The notes: a model not told the origin generated them from the letters alone. 13,953 nucleotides of DNA from Thermodesulfovibrionales bacterium (GCA_044450345.1 JBIOIY010000068.1:1-13953), one strand, 5' to 3'; positions 1 to 13,953 are shown, numbered from the stretch's first letter. Translations and numbers: made by a program.

Positions 1-249
1 ATGGCATGCGCCGCAGGCCTTGCCTTCTTCCATCTCTTTCATCGTGTACTTGCCGCCCTTTTTCATCGGGAATATCTTGGTATGGCAGCTGTTGCACTTA
101 AGATCTTTCTCTGCGTGCTTTGTGCCGTCAAAAACGACTTTGCCCGCCGGGCTCTCAAATTCAACGGTTTTTCCTTTCGGTACCGCGAATGCGCTTCCTA
201 CAAATGCCAGAGCTACGATCACTGTCAAAATCAGTACTGTTTTCTTCAT
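1..249 (-). CDS. Periplasmic c7-type (PpcA/GSU1996-domain-like) multiheme cytochrome c, 3' end runs off the window
   Basis: Hand translation from ATG at 249: MKKTVLILTVIVALAFVGSAFA-VPKGKTVEFESPAGKVVFDGTKHAEKDLKCNSCHTKIFPMKKGGKYTMKEMEEGKACGACH... It has a Sec signal peptide ending AFA and two CxxCH motifs (CNSCH, CGACH) with c7-like spacing. SD-like AAGGGGGTGA lies just upstream. Not in the ORF track because there is no stop inside the window. Confidence 0.92.
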   Translation of the reverse strand, partial: MKKTVLILTVIVALAFVGSAFAVPKGKTVEFESPAGKVVFDGTKHAEKDLKCNSCHTKIFPMKKGGKYTMKEMEEGKACGACH

Positions 250-309
250 CTCTTCACCCCCTTTCATTTAGAAACTTTTAAGCCCCAAAAAGGACTCCAT
301 TTGTGATAG

Positions 310-6792: not shown

Positions 6793-8004
6793 ATGAATAC
6801 AGATGACCGATTTCAATACAATCTTGTTCCTGCCCGGGAGATTTCCCAACGTGTTTCAAGGCTTCAGTGCCGGTTACAAGAAGGGCCGGTGGATGGTGCA
6901 CTGATTCTCGATCCGTTGAACATGTATTACTACACGGGGACGATGCAACAGGGGGTTTTCTTTGTCCCAACTGAGGGAGAACCGGTCTTCCTGGTCCGGC
7001 GAAGTTATGACCGGGCACAGCGGGAAACACCTTTGAAAAGGGTTTTCCCCTTAAAAGGGTTTAGCCAACTTCAGGCAACCCTTGCAGATTTTGGCCTGCA
7101 AACCAACATCCTGGGGGTGGCTGAAACAACCCTGTCCGTTTCCGTTTTTAAAACGTTGGCCAAGGCGTTTCCAGGAGGGACGTTCACGGATATCAGCGCC
7201 CTGTTGGGCATGATTCGTGCGGTGAAGTCCGACTACGAAGTGGGGCTCATCCGAAAAGCCGGGGCACGGCACGAGATGGTCTATAACGCCATCCCTTCCA
7301 TGATTCGCGAAGGGATGACGGAATGGGAGCTCGGGGCTGAGATTCACAAGGGGATGATGGCGTTGGGATACACCGGGATTACACGGCTTGCAGTGTTTGG
7401 CGGGGAGTTGTTTATGGGGATCGTCAGTTTTGGCGAATCAGGAAACTATCCCACCGCTTCGGTAGGGCCGGGAGGTCTGGTGGGACTTTCTCCAGCCTTC
7501 CCCCTGGTTGGGGGAAAGAAGAAACTTGGAAGGGGCGAACCCATATTCGTGGATACCGGGTTTGGGTATGAGGGATATTTCACCGATAAAACGAGAGTCT
7601 TCTCCCTTGGCGCTCCGCCCGCTTCGGCGTTGGATGCTCACAAGGTATGCCTGGACATACAGGAGGCCGTCCGGTGTCGCATCAAGCCTGGCGCCATCCC
7701 GTCTCAGATATACGAGGAGGTCTACAACGAATTCGTCTATCCCCGTGGTTTTGAAAAGCACTTCATGGGTTTCGGCAGCAACCAGGTGCCTTTCCTTGGC
7801 CACGGTATCGGATTAGCTATTGACGAATTCCCGGCCATTGCAGGCAATGTACATACCCCCCTTGAGGCCAACATGGTCATTGCCCTGGAGCCTAAGAAGG
7901 GATTGGAAGGCATCGGGTTGGTGGGTGTGGAAAACACCTTTCTTGTCACCGATGAAGGAGGAGAGAAACTGACTGCCGGATCGGACGGGATGACGATTGT
8001 GTGA
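6793..8004 (+). CDS. M24 family Xaa-Pro aminopeptidase/dipeptidase (creatinase-N plus peptidase M24 domains)
   Basis: MYYYTG N-domain motif and IRAVKSDYEV linker. All five metal ligands are present: FVDTG, FTDKTR, GHGIG, ALEPK, GVENT. ATG 6793 lies 8 nt after AAGGAG. Confidence 0.92.
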   Translation: MNTDDRFQYNLVPAREISQRVSRLQCRLQEGPVDGALILDPLNMYYYTGTMQQGVFFVPTEGEPVFLVRRSYDRAQRETPLKRVFPLKGFSQLQATLADFGLQTNILGVAETTLSVSVFKTLAKAFPGGTFTDISALLGMIRAVKSDYEVGLIRKAGARHEMVYNAIPSMIREGMTEWELGAEIHKGMMALGYTGITRLAVFGGELFMGIVSFGESGNYPTASVGPGGLVGLSPAFPLVGGKKKLGRGEPIFVDTGFGYEGYFTDKTRVFSLGAPPASALDAHKVCLDIQEAVRCRIKPGAIPSQIYEEVYNEFVYPRGFEKHFMGFGSNQVPFLGHGIGLAIDEFPAIAGNVHTPLEANMVIALEPKKGLEGIGLVGVENTFLVTDEGGEKLTAGSDGMTIV

Positions 8005-8049
8005 CCTGTTTTATTGAAGACCTGCCCCGGAAGTAGATCAGGGTGTTTC

Positions 8050-8228: not shown

Positions 8229-8426
8229 ATGAGGACCACGCTTAACATCGAAGACAAGTTGCTCGACAAGGCATCGAAGCTGACCGGCGTCAAGGAAAAG
8301 ACTTCGTTAGTCAGACTCGGGCTCGAAGCGCTTATTACAAGGGAAAGCAGTAAGAGACTCGCCAGACTCGGAGGGACACAGGGGAAATTAGAGCCGATTC
8401 CCCGCAGGAGAGAGGTCGCTAAGTAA
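8229..8426 (+). CDS. vapB: Type II TA antitoxin, VapB (DUF2191/ribbon-helix-helix-like)
   Basis: 65 aa, MRTTLNIEDKLL...EKTSLVRLGLEALI...RLARLGG pattern, strong SD, 1 nt upstream of a PIN-domain gene. Confidence 0.88.
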   Translation: MRTTLNIEDKLLDKASKLTGVKEKTSLVRLGLEALITRESSKRLARLGGTQGKLEPIPRRREVAK

Positions 8427-8427
8427 A

Positions 8428-8787
8428 ATGGTCCTGGTCGACACTTCGGTATGGGTTGCCCATTTTCGATCCGGCGAAGTCGGACTGGAAGCGCTTTTGG
8501 AAGAAGCTTATGTTGTCAGTCATCCGTTCATCGTCGGGGAGCTTGCGTGCGGCAATCTTAAGAACAGGACCGAAATACTTTCGCTTCTTCAGGCACTGCC
8601 TACAGCGGTCCTTGTAGACCATGAAGAAGTAATGCTTTTTATCGAAAATCACGGGCTGATGGGCAAAGGATTAGGGTACATCGATATGCATTTGATTGCC
8701 TCTGCCGTATTGACCAAGGTCCCGATCTGGACACTCGACAAAAAGCTAAACGGGGTCTGTTCAAATCTGGGGATAGTTTCGCGGTAA
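8428..8787 (+). CDS. vapC: Type II TA toxin, VapC PIN-domain ribonuclease
   Basis: 119 aa. VLVDTSVW, HPFIVGELACG, GYIDMHL, IWTLDKKL supply the four acidic PIN active-site residues. Confidence 0.92.
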   Translation: MVLVDTSVWVAHFRSGEVGLEALLEEAYVVSHPFIVGELACGNLKNRTEILSLLQALPTAVLVDHEEVMLFIENHGLMGKGLGYIDMHLIASAVLTKVPIWTLDKKLNGVCSNLGIVSR

Positions 8788-8838: not shown

Positions 8839-9576
8839 ATGAAAATCAAAGAGAGACTCGATAAACTGCTTGTCGACAGGAACCTTGTGAAGAGCCGTGA
8901 GAGGGCGAAGGCCCTTATCATGGAGGGCCATGTCGTCGTCGACGGGACCGTCGTTACGAAGGCCGGAAATCCCGTGGATGCGGAAAGCGAAATAATCCTG
9001 AAGGAAAAGGAGTGCCCTTATGTAGGCCGCGGCGGGTTGAAGCTTGAAGCGGCCCTGGAGCATTTCAAGATAAATCCCGAAGGTATGGTCGCGATGGATG
9101 TCGGGTGTTCGACGGGCGGTTTTACAGACTGCCTCCTAAAAAAAAACGCGCGGAAGGTGTATGCTATAGACGTTGGATACGGCCAGTTGGATTGGTCCCT
9201 CAGAAATGATCCAAGGGTGGTATTGCTCGAAAAGACGAATATCAGATACATTGAAAAGACCGCGGTTCCCGAGCCTGTGGACATTGCGGTGGTCGATGTG
9301 TCTTTTATATCGCTCCTGAAGGTGCTGCCCAGGGTACGGGAGTTTCTCGGCAGCGGGGGAAAGGTGCTCGCACTCATAAAGCCCCAGTTTGAGGCCGGGA
9401 AGGGCATGGTCGGCAAGGGCGGCATAGTAAAAGACGAGTCCACGAGGCTTTCTGCGGTGGAGAGCGTCCGAGAAGGGGTCTCGGGCCTCGGCTTTCAAGC
9501 GCTCGGGGTTTTCGAATCGCCTGTCCGCGGACAGAAGGGCAACATAGAATATTTCATTTACCTGGGGAGAACTTAG
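8839..9576 (+). CDS. tlyA: TlyA family rRNA (cytidine-2'-O)-methyltransferase
   Basis: N-terminal S4 domain (ERLDKLLV...SRERAKALI), YVGRGGLKL, DVGCSTGGFTDCLL, DVSFISL, LIKPQFE, GNIEY. Confidence 0.96.
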   Translation: MKIKERLDKLLVDRNLVKSRERAKALIMEGHVVVDGTVVTKAGNPVDAESEIILKEKECPYVGRGGLKLEAALEHFKINPEGMVAMDVGCSTGGFTDCLLKKNARKVYAIDVGYGQLDWSLRNDPRVVLLEKTNIRYIEKTAVPEPVDIAVVDVSFISLLKVLPRVREFLGSGGKVLALIKPQFEAGKGMVGKGGIVKDESTRLSAVESVREGVSGLGFQALGVFESPVRGQKGNIEYFIYLGRT

Positions 9577-10263
9577 ATGGAAGACACACCGAAGCTGATA
9601 CCGCTCGATTATTCCAATGCGTCGCAGGAAATCCTCGAAATCCTTTTGGGTGATAGTTCCGAACCGGAGATTTTTGATGAGATTGCAAAGGCCAATCTCC
9701 ACCGCCCTGAGATCCTTAGGCTTATTCTGGAGAACCCGGATACGCCGGACGAAGTAAGGAAATTCGTCGAGGAGCGTCTCAGCCTTCCGGCGCAGGCCAG
9801 TCTTGCGATGGTGAAGGCCGAGAAGATCAAGGAGGCAAAAGAAGCGAGGGCAACGAGCCTTACGACCAAGATCCAGAGTCTGAGCATATCGGCGAGGATA
9901 CAGCTTGCACTGAAGGGCGGCAGGGAGATCAGAGGCATCCTTGCCAGGGATTCAAATAAAGAGGTTATGCTCAGCGTACTCGAAAACGGCAAGATCACCG
10001 AATCGGAGATCGAGATGATCGCCAGGAACAGGCAGGTGATGGAAGAGGCGCTGCGGAGGATTTCGAGGAACAAGGAATGGATGAAAAAATATGCGATCGT
10101 TTTTGCTATCGTTACGAACCCCAAGACCCCTCCGGGGATCTCCGTGACACACGTTATGGATCTTAAGACAAAAGACCTCGTTGTTCTCGAAAAGAACAAG
10201 AATGTGTGCGAGGCAGTCCGCAGCGCCACGAAGAGACTTCTCGCGGTCCGGAAACCCAAATAA
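9577..10263 (+). CDS. Conserved hypothetical alpha-helical repeat protein (LRV/ARM-like)
   Basis: 228 aa, ATG immediately after the tlyA stop. Repeated NPxTP motifs (ENPDTP, TNPKTP) and a KIQSLS...IQLALKG...RDSNK segment that resembles uncharacterised deltaproteobacterial-type proteins (recognised from memory, not searched). Confidence 0.8.
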   Translation: MEDTPKLIPLDYSNASQEILEILLGDSSEPEIFDEIAKANLHRPEILRLILENPDTPDEVRKFVEERLSLPAQASLAMVKAEKIKEAKEARATSLTTKIQSLSISARIQLALKGGREIRGILARDSNKEVMLSVLENGKITESEIEMIARNRQVMEEALRRISRNKEWMKKYAIVFAIVTNPKTPPGISVTHVMDLKTKDLVVLEKNKNVCEAVRSATKRLLAVRKPK

Positions 10264-10265
10264 GT

Positions 10266-12341
10266 TCAGACCTTGAACTTCTGTAGTTCCTTCAGGAGGT
10301 TCAAGGCCTCCTCCTTAAGTGAGCTGATGACTTCATTCATCTCATTTCCCGAACCGATCAGTTTATCGGAGGTAAGATGGAGCTGTTCCATGGACCGGAC
10401 TATCGAGATGCTCTTTTCTTTTTGCTTTGCGGTGGCTCCTGCGATCTGCGAGGCCTGCTGCGAGACGTTATCGATTACTCCTGCTATCTGTCTGCTGCCG
10501 TCTTTTTGTTCGCCGGTGGCCGTTTTCACCTGGCGGGAGAGTTCCTTCACCCGTTCGGTCGCCTCTATGATGAACTTGCTCCCCTTGCTTTGTTCCTGAA
10601 TCGCACGGGAGATATTTTCCGTCTGTTCGCTCATGCCTTCTATCGCATCTGTGATCTGTTTGATTACCTGCGATTCCTCGGCGGTCGCCCTCTGGATGGC
10701 CCTTGCCATTTCGGTAGAAGCCTTGGAGCTCTCGACGATCTCACGGAGGGCCCCGTCCATTTCCTTAACGAGGAGAAACCCTTTCTCGGCCGTCTTGATC
10801 CCGTCTGAGGCCATCCTGATGCTCGATTTCGTCACGTCCTGCACGGACGTGATGAGCGCGGCGATCTCATTCGTCGAGACGGAGGCCCTCTCCGCCAGGC
10901 TTTTTATCTCGTCGGCTACGATAGAAAACCCCTTCCCGTGTTCTCCGGCCTTTGAAGCAAGGATGGCCGCGTTCAGGGCGAGCAGATTGGTCTGGTCGGC
11001 GACGTCGTCTATGACGTTCAGTATCTTGCCGATATCCACGGTCCTCTTGCCGAGCATATTGATGACGTCAGAAAGCGCGACGACGCTCTTCTTTATGTTC
11101 TCCATTCCGTCAAGCGCCGCGTTCGCCGCGTTCATCCCTTTGTCGGAAGCGTTTGTCATTACCTTTTCCGCAAGTATGACTGAGTCGCCGGCCCGGTGTT
11201 CGATGTCCCTCGTGGTCGCGTTTACCTCGTCTATCGACGACGCGATTTCCGCCGACGACGCGGAAAGGTTTTCTATGCTCGCCGCGATCTGTTTAATCGA
11301 CGATATCATCTCTTCTATAGAGGAGGCGGTGTCGTGGGCGGTCTCGCTGAAGACGTTTGCATTTTCGGCTATCCGCTCTATGGACGCCGACATCTGCATT
11401 ATAGCGGACGAGGTATGCTCTGCGGATTCGGACAGGCTGTTTGCACTCATGACGACCTTCGAGACTGAACCGTCCATCTCCTCCATCGCCACGGCGGTCT
11501 CCTCCACCGCATTTTTTTGCACGTCGGCGATAGAGAGTATCGCCTGTGACGATGAGGCGATATTAGACGTCACGTTCGAGACGCTGCTCGTGATGCCGCC
11601 GATCTTGGAGAGCATGTCCTTGAGATTGAAAGCCATCCCGTTGATCGCCTTGCCGAGGGAGGCAATTTCGTCCTTTCCTTTTATATCGATTATCGCGGTG
11701 AGATCGCCGGATGCGATCCTGTCGGCTGTTTTTTCCATGACCGAGATCGGCCGGGTAATGAACTTCGAAATGGCAACGGAGACGAAGACGAGAGAAAGGA
11801 CGAAACAGAGAAAAGAGACGCCTACCGCCCAGAAGAGAAGCGCATAAAGCTGGGAATTTATCGCCTCCGTGCGGATACCCACGCGGAGAGTTCCCGCTAT
11901 TTTCCCTTCCGCATTCAGAAGTGGAAACGAAAGGTCATAAAAAGAGTCCAGTGTCTGGACGAGCATTTTGGTGGAAGCAAGGGCGGCCGCCGCGGCTTTG
12001 TCTTTGAGCTCTTTGCCTACGCTGGCGGGGTCACTGTGGAATAATATCTTTCCCGTCGCGCCCATGACCATCGCGTAGCCGATCGCTTTGTCCCGGGACA
12101 CGAATTCCTTCATCTTCTCGTTGACGCCTTCGAGGGACTCTATAGGCACTCCGAGACTCAGCACCTTGCCCAGGTCTCTCTGCATGCCCTCACCGACCGC
12201 CTCAGTCTTAGAGACGATCGCGTTTTTATACTTTTCGGTCGCTACCAGGGTAAGGACGAAGGTGTTGATAGCGATGGTAAAAAAGAGAATACCCGCTATC
12301 ATGAGGACTGCCTTTTTCTGAAGGTTCAATGCCAGTTTCAT
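10266..12341 (-). CDS. Methyl-accepting chemotaxis protein, 64H (40+24H) class, with small Cache-like periplasmic domain and HAMP
   Basis: TM1 about aa 11-33, periplasmic aa 35-165, TM2 about aa 166-192, HAMP (RPI...IASGDL...DEIASLG), tip motif DQTNLLALNAAILASKAGEHGKGFSIVADEIK. About 222 aa lie before and 224 aa after the tip. Confidence 0.95.
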   Translation of the reverse strand: MKLALNLQKKAVLMIAGILFFTIAINTFVLTLVATEKYKNAIVSKTEAVGEGMQRDLGKVLSLGVPIESLEGVNEKMKEFVSRDKAIGYAMVMGATGKILFHSDPASVGKELKDKAAAAALASTKMLVQTLDSFYDLSFPLLNAEGKIAGTLRVGIRTEAINSQLYALLFWAVGVSFLCFVLSLVFVSVAISKFITRPISVMEKTADRIASGDLTAIIDIKGKDEIASLGKAINGMAFNLKDMLSKIGGITSSVSNVTSNIASSSQAILSIADVQKNAVEETAVAMEEMDGSVSKVVMSANSLSESAEHTSSAIMQMSASIERIAENANVFSETAHDTASSIEEMISSIKQIAASIENLSASSAEIASSIDEVNATTRDIEHRAGDSVILAEKVMTNASDKGMNAANAALDGMENIKKSVVALSDVINMLGKRTVDIGKILNVIDDVADQTNLLALNAAILASKAGEHGKGFSIVADEIKSLAERASVSTNEIAALITSVQDVTKSSIRMASDGIKTAEKGFLLVKEMDGALREIVESSKASTEMARAIQRATAEESQVIKQITDAIEGMSEQTENISRAIQEQSKGSKFIIEATERVKELSRQVKTATGEQKDGSRQIAGVIDNVSQQASQIAGATAKQKEKSISIVRSMEQLHLTSDKLIGSGNEMNEVISSLKEEALNLLKELQKFKV

Positions 12342-13300
12342 TTTATGACCTTTGTGGCCGAGGTCAGCAGGTCAAAAGGCACCTTAAGCCCCATGTCCGT
12401 GGCCTCCCTGAGGTTTATAATAACGTCGATTTTTTTAGGCTGCTCTATTGGGATGGAGGCGGGTTTCGCTCCCCTGAGGATCTTCGCGACTATTTTTGCG
12501 GCCTCTCTGCCCTGTTCGTGCGGGTCGGCCGCGATGGTGAGGATGACGCCCTGTGTCTCACCTCCGGCTATGGTCGCGGCAGTGGGCACTTTCGCCTTTC
12601 GTGCGACGCCGGTTATATTTGAGACACAGTGCATGGCGGCACAGCCGGTCGTCAGGAAGAGGGCTTCGACATTCGCGATCTTCGCGGTATCGGAGGCCTT
12701 CTTGATGTTGAACCTCGTAGACTTGAACCCATAGGTGCCTTCGAGCTGCTTCACATCGTTGGCCTGCACCACCGTGTCTTTTTCGGAATCGTTGAAGATT
12801 ACGCCCAATGTCGAAAAGTTGGAGATGCTCTTCAGGTTCTTGATGATACTTGCGACGGGCACCTTGGAACTGATGCCCGTTGCGTTCTTGCCGGTCACTC
12901 CAACCGCCTGCGGATCATACACGCCGGCGAAGACAATGGGGATATCGGAGGTTTCGCTCATCGCGAAGATCGTTGCAGGCGCCCCGTAGGACACGATCAC
13001 GGTCGAGCCGACGGTAACCAGTTTCCTGGCCGCATTTGTCCAGGACATGGTTTCGGGAGAGGGGGTCTGGATAACGGTCTCGACGCTTCCCGGACCAAAA
13101 CCTTCCGATGCCAGCGTCTCGGTGAAGCTCTTATGGACATCCTTGTAATAAGGGATGTTTCCGGTCATGATGATACCGACTATCTTTGGCGCCGCCGATG
13201 CGGCCGGACCAGTCAGAAAAATAATGAGCATGGTGAGAAGGACTACCCATACACTTCCGCGTAGGGCATTAAGAAGGGCGACGTCTGTCCGGGATTTCAT
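12338..13300 (-). CDS. Periplasmic solute-binding protein (ABC_sub_bind/PF04392-like), no transporter genes in the window
   Basis: Hydrophobic signal peptide ending ASA-A, IPIVFAGVYDP, NATGIS, LGVIFN.SEKD, QGREAAKIVAKILRGAKPASIPIE, IINLREA..MGL.VP..LL. ATG at 13300 follows AAGGA. The stop overlaps the MCP start (ATGA). Confidence 0.88.
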   Translation of the reverse strand: MKSRTDVALLNALRGSVWVVLLTMLIIFLTGPAASAAPKIVGIIMTGNIPYYKDVHKSFTETLASEGFGPGSVETVIQTPSPETMSWTNAARKLVTVGSTVIVSYGAPATIFAMSETSDIPIVFAGVYDPQAVGVTGKNATGISSKVPVASIIKNLKSISNFSTLGVIFNDSEKDTVVQANDVKQLEGTYGFKSTRFNIKKASDTAKIANVEALFLTTGCAAMHCVSNITGVARKAKVPTAATIAGGETQGVILTIAADPHEQGREAAKIVAKILRGAKPASIPIEQPKKIDVIINLREATDMGLKVPFDLLTSATKVIK

Positions 13301-13311
13301 CTTGTCTTCCT

Positions 13312-13953
13312 TTACCATCTCTTTGATAGTGTCAGCAGGACGATATGCGTCTTGCCGTCCGTCATGTCGTCGTAAGCCAGGGCGTCGTCGGAGTTGCTGT
13401 ACCGGTACTGAAGGCCTGCTGCCCAACCTCCCTTAAACCTGTATTCACCCGAGAGATAGTATATGATCTCTTTTGTCTTGAGCTGCGAAAAAGAAGCTAT
13501 GGACACAGGCAGCAGGAGGTTTGGGTCCGAAGGGGAAAACTGCCCGCTGCTTACGGTATAGCTCACTCCTGTATTTACCGTGACATTATTTTTCGGAAGA
13601 TAATTAAGGTTGAGGACATAGTTATGCACTAAATCCGTACTCGGCACAAAGGGGTCTACCTGTGGAGCTCCGACCGAGTTCTGGAACACGATATCCTGCT
13701 TCGTGCTGTCATGCATATATGCGTATACGGCCGTGACCGAAAGGTCTTTGAACAGGAGATACGTGACGCTCCCCATCAGCCTGTTCCTGTTTACATCCCT
13801 GTTATGCGCATTCGGGGTATCGGTAAAAAGAAGGTCATCCCTTCTTTCGCTGATGATGCTGTAACTGACCGTTGCGTTGAGCCGCGGCAGCGGTCTCCAG
13901 GTGACCGATACCTTGCCTTCGTCTGAATGGTCCGGTTCCGTATTATAAGCCGG
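13312..13953 (-). CDS. Outer-membrane beta-barrel protein, C-terminal part (MtrB/PioB-like porin candidate), 5' end outside window
   Basis: The frame is open from 13953 (PAYNTEPDHSDEGKVSVTWRPLPRLNATVSYS...) to the stop at 13312. It has repeated amphipathic strands ending in aromatics (SVTW, TVSY, SVTY, AVYAY, NLNY, GVSY, SGEY, LQYRY) and a terminal LTLSKRW beta-signal. The family assignment is an inference. Confidence 0.8.
   Translation of the reverse strand, partial: PAYNTEPDHSDEGKVSVTWRPLPRLNATVSYSIISERRDDLLFTDTPNAHNRDVNRNRLMGSVTYLLFKDLSVTAVYAYMHDSTKQDIVFQNSVGAPQVDPFVPSTDLVHNYVLNLNYLPKNNVTVNTGVSYTVSSGQFSPSDPNLLLPVSIASFSQLKTKEIIYYLSGEYRFKGGWAAGLQYRYSNSDDALAYDDMTDGKTHIVLLTLSKRW

Follow-up and report, generated by a model that had tools for sequence, protein, structure and literature searches.

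A conserved Nitrospirota gene module combining an MtrAB-like conduit, an orphan binding protein and a chemoreceptor

Contig JBIOIY010000068.1 of a Thermodesulfovibrionales bacterium (GCA_044450345.1) ends in three tightly packed genes that are the distal part of a conserved four-gene module of Nitrospirota. The window analyzed here is the whole contig of 13,953 nt, and its end falls inside the first of the three genes. The complete module encodes a decaheme cytochrome of the MtrA/DmsE type, a 26-strand outer membrane barrel resembling MtrB, an orphan periplasmic binding protein (SBP) of family PF04392, and a methyl-accepting chemotaxis protein (MCP) of the 64H type with an sCache sensor domain. 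The genes and features of the window that bear on the module are as follows.

13312..13953, minus strand: MtrB-like barrel, C-terminal 213 aa; open reading frame (ORF) open at the 5' end, stop codon TAA at 13312-13314
13301..13311, minus strand: spacer of 11 nt between barrel and SBP genes, AGGAAGACAAG, purine-rich and Shine-Dalgarno-like; read directly
12338..13300, minus strand: orphan periplasmic binding protein (SBP), 320 aa, PF04392 ABC_sub_bind; ATG at 13300
12626..12643, minus strand: Cys220-x2-Met-His-Cys225 stretch of the SBP, from alignment with 3lft and 3lkv
10266..12341, minus strand: methyl-accepting chemotaxis protein (MCP), 691 aa; ORF with sCache_3_2, HAMP and MCPsignal by Pfam
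11844..12236, minus strand: periplasmic sensor domain of the MCP, residues 36-166 approximately, sCache_3_2; from Pfam and the flanking hydrophobic segments
9577..10263, plus strand: convergent 228-aa gene without a family, which bounds the unit and is not part of it; ORF call

The three genes form a single compact unit, as a first-pass annotation of this sequence had described. Reading of the ORFs confirmed the 11-nt spacer, an ATGA in which the stop codon TGA of the SBP gene and the start codon ATG of the MCP gene overlap, and the head-on end at the convergent gene. The stop codons of the MCP gene and the 228-aa ORF are 2 nt apart, too close for terminators to fit between them. No ABC permease or ATPase was found among the 12 ORFs of the window scanned with Pfam, and a Walker A motif together with an ABC signature occurs in no reading frame of the window. 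A scan of positions 9400-13953 gave two promoter-like sites (2.8 in shuffled sequences) and nine terminator-like sites (4.9 in shuffled sequences). None of these is at a gene junction of the unit, and the scan is therefore uninformative.

The same gene order and tight spacing recur in related loci to an extent that is more than chance. Relatives were found by a scan of genomes, one per species, with an alignment of 18 SBP sequences and with SWTNAARKL (SBP residues 85-94) as the search pattern. The best 80 of 151 confirmed loci were taken with 10-kb flanks, and genes were counted by tblastn of four reference proteins against all 80. By NCBI lineage, 77 of the loci belong to Nitrospirota and two to Desulfobulbales, and one is unclassified. 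The barrel gene is directly upstream of the SBP gene in 62 of the 65 loci whose flank reaches 2300 nt, and cytochrome and barrel genes are both found upstream in 62 of the 64 loci with at least 3400 nt on that side. Among the 74 loci with enough flank on the MCP side, an MCP gene adjoins the SBP gene in 58 and is present within 4 kb in 67. All four genes are found together in 52 of the 55 loci with both flanks. The gap between barrel and SBP genes has a median of 10 nt (n=72 loci), and the ATGA overlap is retained in 46 of 62 adjacent SBP-MCP pairs. The co-occurrence of barrel, SBP and MCP, to which the first-pass annotation had tied its proposal, is thus conserved. Because the loci were selected by their SBP and come mostly from one phylum, part of this conservation is due to shared descent.

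The triad of MtrA-like cytochrome, barrel and SBP is the most constant part of all variants. Genes outside the four vary, for example NamZ, beta-lactamase and DUF4015 genes in L001, a YkuD gene in L002, and genes for HEAT and HD proteins in L025. ABC transporter genes, which the window lacks, are rare around the module in the relatives too: a frame with a Walker A motif and an ABC signature occurs within 10 kb in only two of the 80 loci, both times more than 4 kb from the SBP gene and on the opposite strand. A transporter for the SBP could still be encoded elsewhere in the genome.

The upstream cytochrome gene was read in relatives, since the window ends inside the barrel gene. The closest genome (locus L001) has an SBP 84% identical to that of the window and is syntenic with it on the far side of the unit (228-aa gene, methyltransferase, DXS, polyprenyl synthase, guaA/guaB). 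Its cytochrome gene (6842-8008) ends 16 nt before the start of the barrel gene and encodes nine CxxCH motifs and one CxxxCH motif. With 252.1 bits the protein exceeds the cut-off (192.2) of TIGR03508, which models decahemes of the DmsE family. In a phmmer comparison its residues 101-379 match chain A of 6r2q with E 1.8e-44; we take this chain to be MtrA and its printed label, 'Cystathionine beta-synthase', to be a mislabel. The heme motifs are highly conserved: 55 of 56 MtrA-like orthologues have nine CxxCH motifs and one CxxxCH, and the remaining one has eight and two. The first heme motif is CxxxCH, not CxxCH, in 55 of the 56. A lipobox-like motif is found near the N-terminus of 44 of these 56 cytochromes, whereas MtrA is soluble. 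The multiheme cytochrome that the first-pass annotation had raised as a condition for a link to electron transfer is thus present in the relatives.

The barrel is MtrB-like by predicted fold and by context, and it is not a certified member of the family because the relation at the sequence level is weak. The 213-aa fragment in the window reaches no Pfam cut-off (Porin_4 gives 17 bits against a cut-off of 27) and has no match to PF11854 up to E 0.01. A homologue search restricted to longer proteins gave 57 homologues, nearly all of 620-710 aa, and 26 of these have a precomputed match to PF11854 (MtrB_PioB). The best homologue, P0121 (654 aa), shares 96% identity at its C-terminus with the fragment. 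An AlphaFold2 model of P0121, made from a 60-sequence alignment, has a mean predicted local distance difference test score (pLDDT) of 85.6 and 26 strands of at least nine residues; MtrB also has 26 strands. In a Foldseek search of the PDB with this model the top match was 6r2q_B of the Mtr complex (E 8.6e-21, template modeling (TM) score 0.74/0.74), while the other listed matches were TonB-dependent receptors and similar barrels with E of at least 8.6e-09 and query TM of at most 0.43. A TonB-dependent receptor or solute porin is rejected on fold by this difference, which also answers the choice between MtrB_PioB and TonB-type barrels left by the first-pass annotation. The word porin used there is inaccurate, the barrel being by homology an MtrB-like sheath of a decaheme.

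Sequence models give a more distant picture of the barrel. The L001 barrel scores 24.7 bits on PF11854 (cut-off 23) and 27.1 bits on TIGR03509 (cut-off 240), and the GSU2204-family model NF041027 gives 129.1 bits against a cut-off of 350. The divergent barrels of L050 and L047 have no Pfam match up to E 0.001. None of the listed barrels of related loci contains a CxxCH motif. MtrB of the Shewanella type has an N-terminal CXXC motif; the translated L001 barrel lacks it and has no cysteine at all, and the motif may be limited to gammaproteobacterial MtrB. By analogy with the Mtr complex the lumen of the barrel would be filled by the cytochrome, and a ligand-admitting channel is unlikely. The barrel genes of L069 (8034-9708) and L052 (8115-9974) are split over frames and are either pseudogenes or errors in assembly of metagenome-assembled genomes (MAGs).

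The SBP has the type I binding-protein fold and appears to have kept its ligand cleft. It matches PF04392 with 97.8 bits (cut-off 25.9), has an N-terminal signal or anchor helix at about residues 5-30, and is related to the three solved PF04392 proteins 3lft, 3lkv and 6hni (phmmer E 2e-18 to 2e-15). The AlphaFold2 model (pLDDT 88.8) matches the type I fold of 3lft_A, a closed, Trp-bound structure, with TM 0.82/0.89 and a root-mean-square deviation of 2.3. As the best match is to this closed form, the cleft is retained. The L001 orthologue does not reach the TrpX equivalog model NF041285 (111.5 bits against 390). Known ligands of PF04392 are L-Trp, L-Tyr and L-Phe, according to the accessible text of PMC10443332.

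Some residues of the SBP are conserved in ways that differ from the solved proteins. The 'DNT' of 3lft and 3lkv is replaced by TGCAAMHC in the window SBP. Cys220 and Cys225 of this stretch are both invariant in 18 close homologues. Among 80 rows (the window SBP and 79 locus SBPs), Cys220 is found in 44 and Cys225 in 42, and both are absent from the clade with Che operons described below. The pair is therefore clade-specific, and a thiol or soft-metal site, which is possible in SBPs of the window clade judging from these residues, cannot be the general mechanism. The same distribution led to rejection of a thiol/disulfide switch common to all these SBPs. Residues invariant in the SBP clade, including W87, N89, R92 and K93, align with non-conserved residues of the solved proteins, and we infer that they are candidate contact surfaces. 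A complex prediction for SBP residues 38-320 with MCP residues 36-166, which used a separate 54-row alignment for each partner, gave a median of 0.20 against a mark of 0.32; made without controls, it weighs neither way.

The MCP has a small periplasmic sensor domain and a long signalling hairpin. Its Pfam matches are sCache_3_2 at residues 75-168 (43.6 bits, cut-off 28.4), HAMP (59 against 25) and MCPsignal (138.6 against 34.6). Hydrophobic segments at about residues 7-36 and 163-199 flank a periplasmic domain of about 130 aa, and this sensor domain has no CxxCH motif. The hairpin measures 32.1 heptads from the end of HAMP (residue 242) to the tip at Glu467 and 32.0 heptads from the tip to the C-terminus. 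The 64H label given in the first-pass annotation agrees with these arms by length only, as the class was assigned without a class-specific model. 64H is a recognized MCP class and was counted in Desulfuromonas genomes, according to the part of PMC8235581 that was available.

Other MCPs of the related loci have unusual features. Proteins of about 950 aa with a full Phosphonate-bd (PhnD-like) domain at the C-terminus, after the signalling hairpin, are encoded in L050 (13006-15852) and twice in L064 (3925-6792 and 10937-13834). No third hydrophobic segment precedes this domain, which would therefore be cytoplasmic, an unusual placement for a Phosphonate-bd domain. The upstream MCP of L064 has a CxxCH motif at residue 143. 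In L020 the MCP gene (11261-13161) is split over frames, again either a pseudogene or a MAG assembly error.

The arrangement of genes around the SBP differs among the loci. Loci of the window type, whose SBPs are 55-84% identical to that of the window, have the cytochrome, the barrel, the SBP and the 691-aa sCache MCP. In 19 of the 80 loci the conduit and SBP genes are inside a complete chemosensory operon. It begins with a DUF4388(-GAF) protein, CheY, CheA, an AAA_22 ATPase and CheW, followed by an MtrC-like ten-heme cytochrome, the MtrA-like decaheme, the barrel and the SBP. After the SBP come a 697-aa sCache_3_2 MCP, further MCPs (three in total), CheW, a 663-aa HEAT-repeat protein, CheR, CheB, a GAF protein and a second CheY. 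One MCP of this type carries a C-terminal Phosphonate-bd domain. CheA, AAA_22 and HEAT genes were each counted in 19 of the 80 loci, CheW in 20-21, CheR in 13 and CheB in nine; the lower counts for CheR and CheB reflect the limited flanks. Two of the Che operons (L065:1476-18640 and L073:1627-19547) are complete but of unusual composition, with DUF4388 (PATAN-like), AAA_22 between cheA and cheW, and the HEAT gene before cheR.

Further variants exchange the genes that follow the SBP. Nine loci, including both from Desulfobulbales, have a 13-heme MtrC/MtrF-like cytochrome between the SBP and a different MCP of about 500 aa. In L038 the SBP gene is followed not by an MCP gene but by genes for a sigma-54 response regulator and a PAS/GAF kinase, and with this swap of transducer the upstream genes look like an input module feeding exchangeable transducers. 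Three loci without the upstream genes (L075, L077 and L078) belong to a paralogous PF04392 branch that has no conduit, and L072 is of the same branch and has too little flank. In this branch (for example L077:9917-13739) the genes after that of the SBP encode a Phosphonate-bd protein and a histidine kinase of the HAMP-GAF type, whose CxxCH at residue 89 is in the predicted periplasmic part. The kinase is by its sequence a candidate heme-based periplasmic sensor. Kinases with CxxCH follow even the conduit-less paralogues, so that members of this SBP family are found beside periplasmic redox sensors.

A quick maximum-likelihood tree of 80 SBP rows (the window and 79 loci, with L052 left out), rooted on the four conduit-less paralogues, places the other 76 rows in one clade with a Shimodaira-Hasegawa-like approximate likelihood ratio test (SH-aLRT) value of 100. 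The Che-operon type (22 rows, SH-aLRT 96) is sister to the rest; window-type was the default label for any row without assignment to another variant.

Overall it appears probable, at a moderate level of confidence, that the MtrAB-like conduit is functionally coupled to chemosensing, with the SBP as the likely periplasmic relay. The decaheme would thread the barrel, and the two would carry electrons through the outer membrane in the manner of MtrAB, PioAB and MtoAB. The SBP would have lost any role in transport and would link the conduit, or a product of its activity, to the sCache domain of the MCP in the periplasm. Candidates for its input are the state of the decaheme (redox or occupancy), a metal ion and a redox-active small molecule. 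The MCP would feed a Che pathway of the 64H type encoded elsewhere in the genome, and motility or surface colonization would thus track the availability of extracellular electron acceptors or donors. The first-pass annotation had proposed a dedicated pathway from outer membrane through periplasm to chemoreceptor. The genomic tests favor such a pathway, but its use of the barrel as a ligand inlet is unlikely, and the relay from SBP to chemoreceptor is something that we only infer, from gene order and translational coupling.

A stronger form of this interpretation, offered tentatively, is that the conduit is not primarily a respiratory wire but the antenna of a chemosensory system. Electron exchange with a mineral, an electrode, a shuttle or a partner cell would set the state of the periplasmic end of the decaheme, and the transporter-less SBP would read this state and pass it to 64H receptors. 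If so, the module would be a redox sense that acts across the outer membrane, an input that has not been described for any chemosensory pathway.

Several findings count against coupling of the conduit to chemosensing. The cytochrome gene is outside the window, and its presence in this organism is expected from synteny with relatives. Window-type loci have no Che gene within 10 kb, and three of the 55 complete loci have no MCP nearby. The nine 13-heme loci have a different MCP, and therefore the pairing of the SBP with an sCache receptor is not universal. No conserved redox cofactor motif is present in the SBP, and its Cys pair is confined to the window clade. The loci were picked by SBP similarity, 77 of the 80 being from Nitrospirota, and MtrAB-like pairs without an SBP were outside the sample. 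Finally, gene adjacency alone cannot tell a physical relay from co-regulation.

Co-regulation of mechanistically separate parts is the alternative that survives best, and it is somewhat unlikely. The conduit would be an ordinary one for respiration or electron uptake, and the SBP and MCP would sense a soluble cue (Fe(II), Mn(II), another metal or an aromatic compound) that enters through general porins. Adjacency would then only ensure that the cell swims toward a substrate that it can use. Geobacter is known to show chemotaxis toward Fe(II). The match of the SBP model to the closed, Trp-bound structure 3lft (TM 0.82/0.89) fits a small-molecule ligand, and the stretch with Cys, Met, His and Cys on the cleft side of window-clade SBPs would suit a soft metal. 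According to the available portion of PMC10443332, the ligand in each of the three liganded PF04392 structures is a small molecule (L-Trp, L-Tyr or L-Phe), and SBP-dependent chemoreceptors are established, as in Tar with MBP and CtpL with PstS. However, the SBP is tied more tightly to the barrel (62/65) than to the adjacent MCP (58/74), and in nine loci its gene is between those of the barrel and an MtrC-like cytochrome. The conduit genes in the middle of a Che operon in 19 loci would be odd for a purely respiratory complex, and the cleft residues vary between clades.

Alternatively, the SBP-like protein could belong to the conduit itself, as a subunit for structure, docking or assembly: it might cap the decaheme on the periplasmic side, serve as its adaptor, or help to insert the barrel. 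The MCP would then sense through its own sCache domain; this alternative is improbable. The constancy of the triad across the variants agrees with such a role, as do invariant surface-type motifs of the SBP clade that are absent from solved transport SBPs, for example SWTNAARKL at residues 85-94. sCache domains commonly bind ligands directly. Nevertheless the ATGA coupling is with the MCP (46/62) and not with the barrel, and to our knowledge the characterized MtrAB, PioAB and MtoAB systems need no SBP-like subunit. The conduit-less PF04392 paralogues that precede sensor kinases also point to a signalling role of the family in these genomes.

The last alternative, in which the barrel admits a ligand, as a solute porin or a TonB-type receptor would, and the SBP hands this ligand to the MCP, is very improbable: apart from the weak, sub-threshold Porin_4 match of the fragment (17 bits, cut-off 27) and the label 'predicted porin' on some barrel homologues, the evidence opposes it, since the fold agrees far better with MtrB (TM 0.74) than with TonB-dependent receptors (query TM at most 0.43), a decaheme gene is immediately upstream of the barrel gene in 62 of 64 loci, and the lumen would by homology with the Mtr complex be filled by cytochrome.

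Of the nine other ORFs scanned in the window, six are housekeeping genes, for IMPDH, GMP synthase, polyprenyl synthase, DXS, an M24 peptidase and a TlyA-like methyltransferase. The remaining three encode a PIN toxin, a fragment resembling cytochrome c7, and the 228-aa convergent protein. The latter (9577-10263) has no Pfam or NCBIfam match; its gene keeps its position in L001 (13048-13734, minus strand) and is convergent there too. A 65-aa ORF (8229-8426, plus strand) directly before the PIN-domain ORF (8428-8787, plus strand) looks like the other half of a VapBC-type toxin-antitoxin pair. In L001 one 267-aa ORF takes the place of this pair and the M24 peptidase gene. A partial gene at positions 1-267 (minus strand) matches Cytochrome_C7 with E 1.3e-11 and represents a multiheme cytochrome unrelated to the module.

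The module bears on how bacteria find and recognize insoluble electron acceptors and donors. For this behavior Shewanella needs Mtr cytochromes and a Cache chemoreceptor, and Geobacter needs a Che-like network on electrodes, but in neither is a physical or genetic link between conduit and receptor known. A unit of conduit, transporter-less SBP and Cache MCP is a concrete candidate for that link, the more so where a full Che operon surrounds it. The candidate is testable, as binding between each two of the three proteins, and its dependence on redox state, are measurable. Such a link would also change the reading of metagenomic MtrAB-like genes, which now count as markers of iron respiration or oxidation; some of them may be sensors.

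The conduit pair resembles the MtrAB(C), PioAB and MtoAB systems. A DmsE/MtrA decaheme is encoded beside a large barrel, and the barrel model superposes on MtrB of 6r2q. Window-type loci have no MtrC-like gene, in which they resemble PioAB and MtoAB as far as the sources at hand describe these. The module differs from MtrAB in its barrel, whose similarity in sequence is marginal (PF11854, 24.7 against 23; TIGR03509, 27 against 240), in the CxxxCH first heme motif and the lipobox-like motif of 44/56 cytochromes, and in the SBP and MCP genes that follow in one tightly packed unit.

The nearest named relatives of the pair in Geobacter appear, from model scores, to be GSU2203 (OmcK) and GSU2204. 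The module cytochrome scores 236.8 bits on the GSU2203-family model of Geobacter sulfurreducens OmcK (cut-off 325) and the barrel 129 bits on the GSU2204-family model (cut-off 350), both below the cut-off. The GSU2204 family is described as an MtrB/PioB-family barrel in the accessible text of PMC13188914, and both genes are up-regulated with iron oxides according to the part of PMC4070692 available. The Nitrospirota barrel differs from GSU2204 in lacking both a CxxCH motif and a selenocysteine site. A term search of the Geobacter chemotaxis paper PMC2577667 found no mention of the region GSU2203-GSU2222.

Pairing of a conduit with an SBP has been seen before. Operons of Geobacterales contain genes for a DmsE/MtrA cytochrome, an MtrB/PioB porin and proteins annotated as ABC substrate-binding and ABC ATP-binding, and were read as possible metal uptake systems in the available text of PMC11492766, a survey of Desulfuromonadia cytochromes. 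This is the only printed mention found, within the sources as far as they were accessible, of a binding-protein gene with mtrA/mtrB-like genes. Those operons differ in that an ABC ATPase is present, whereas the module here has no ABC ATPase or permease alongside. The words 'chemotaxis' and 'methyl-accepting' are absent from the main text of that paper. Searches of full-text literature, covering main texts, found no description of a link between a conduit and a chemoreceptor or Che operon, and term searches found no description of the combination of conduit, SBP and MCP in the main text of PMC8805035, PMC12133095, PMC13647500 or PMC9040806.

Other systems join electron transfer with chemosensory proteins. 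In the Esn network of Geobacter, CheW (GSU2220), an ATPase (GSU2221) and CheA (GSU2222) are encoded by neighboring genes, and Esn mutants fail on electrodes, according to the accessible part of PMC5585712. The deep-branching Nitrospirota operons begin with CheA, an AAA_22 ATPase and CheW, the same trio by kind of gene. The Esn network, as far as that source describes it, differs in having a cytoplasmic GAF-type 40H MCP and no conduit inside the cluster. Accumulation of Shewanella at minerals correlates with mtrBC/omcA and with the Cache-domain MCP SO_2240, in the text available from PMC5789149. Congregation or energy taxis of Shewanella around insoluble electron acceptors uses the same two kinds of parts, an Mtr conduit and a Cache MCP. 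There, as described in that text, they are encoded at separate loci and no binding protein is named, whereas in Nitrospirota the genes for the conduit, the SBP and the Cache MCP form one unit.

The SBP and MCP also resemble established pairs of binding protein and transducer. As in MBP-Tar, RBP/GBP-Trg, PstS-CtpL and the orphan XylFII-LytS pair, a membrane transducer is encoded together with a periplasmic binding protein of type I. The folds of ribose-binding protein (1drj) and of XylFII in its complex with LytSN (5xsj) are also similar to the SBP model (TM 0.55-0.61), and XylFII is likewise without a transporter of its own. Those systems report sugars or phosphate and most feed ABC importers, whereas the constant genomic partner of the SBP described here is an electron conduit.

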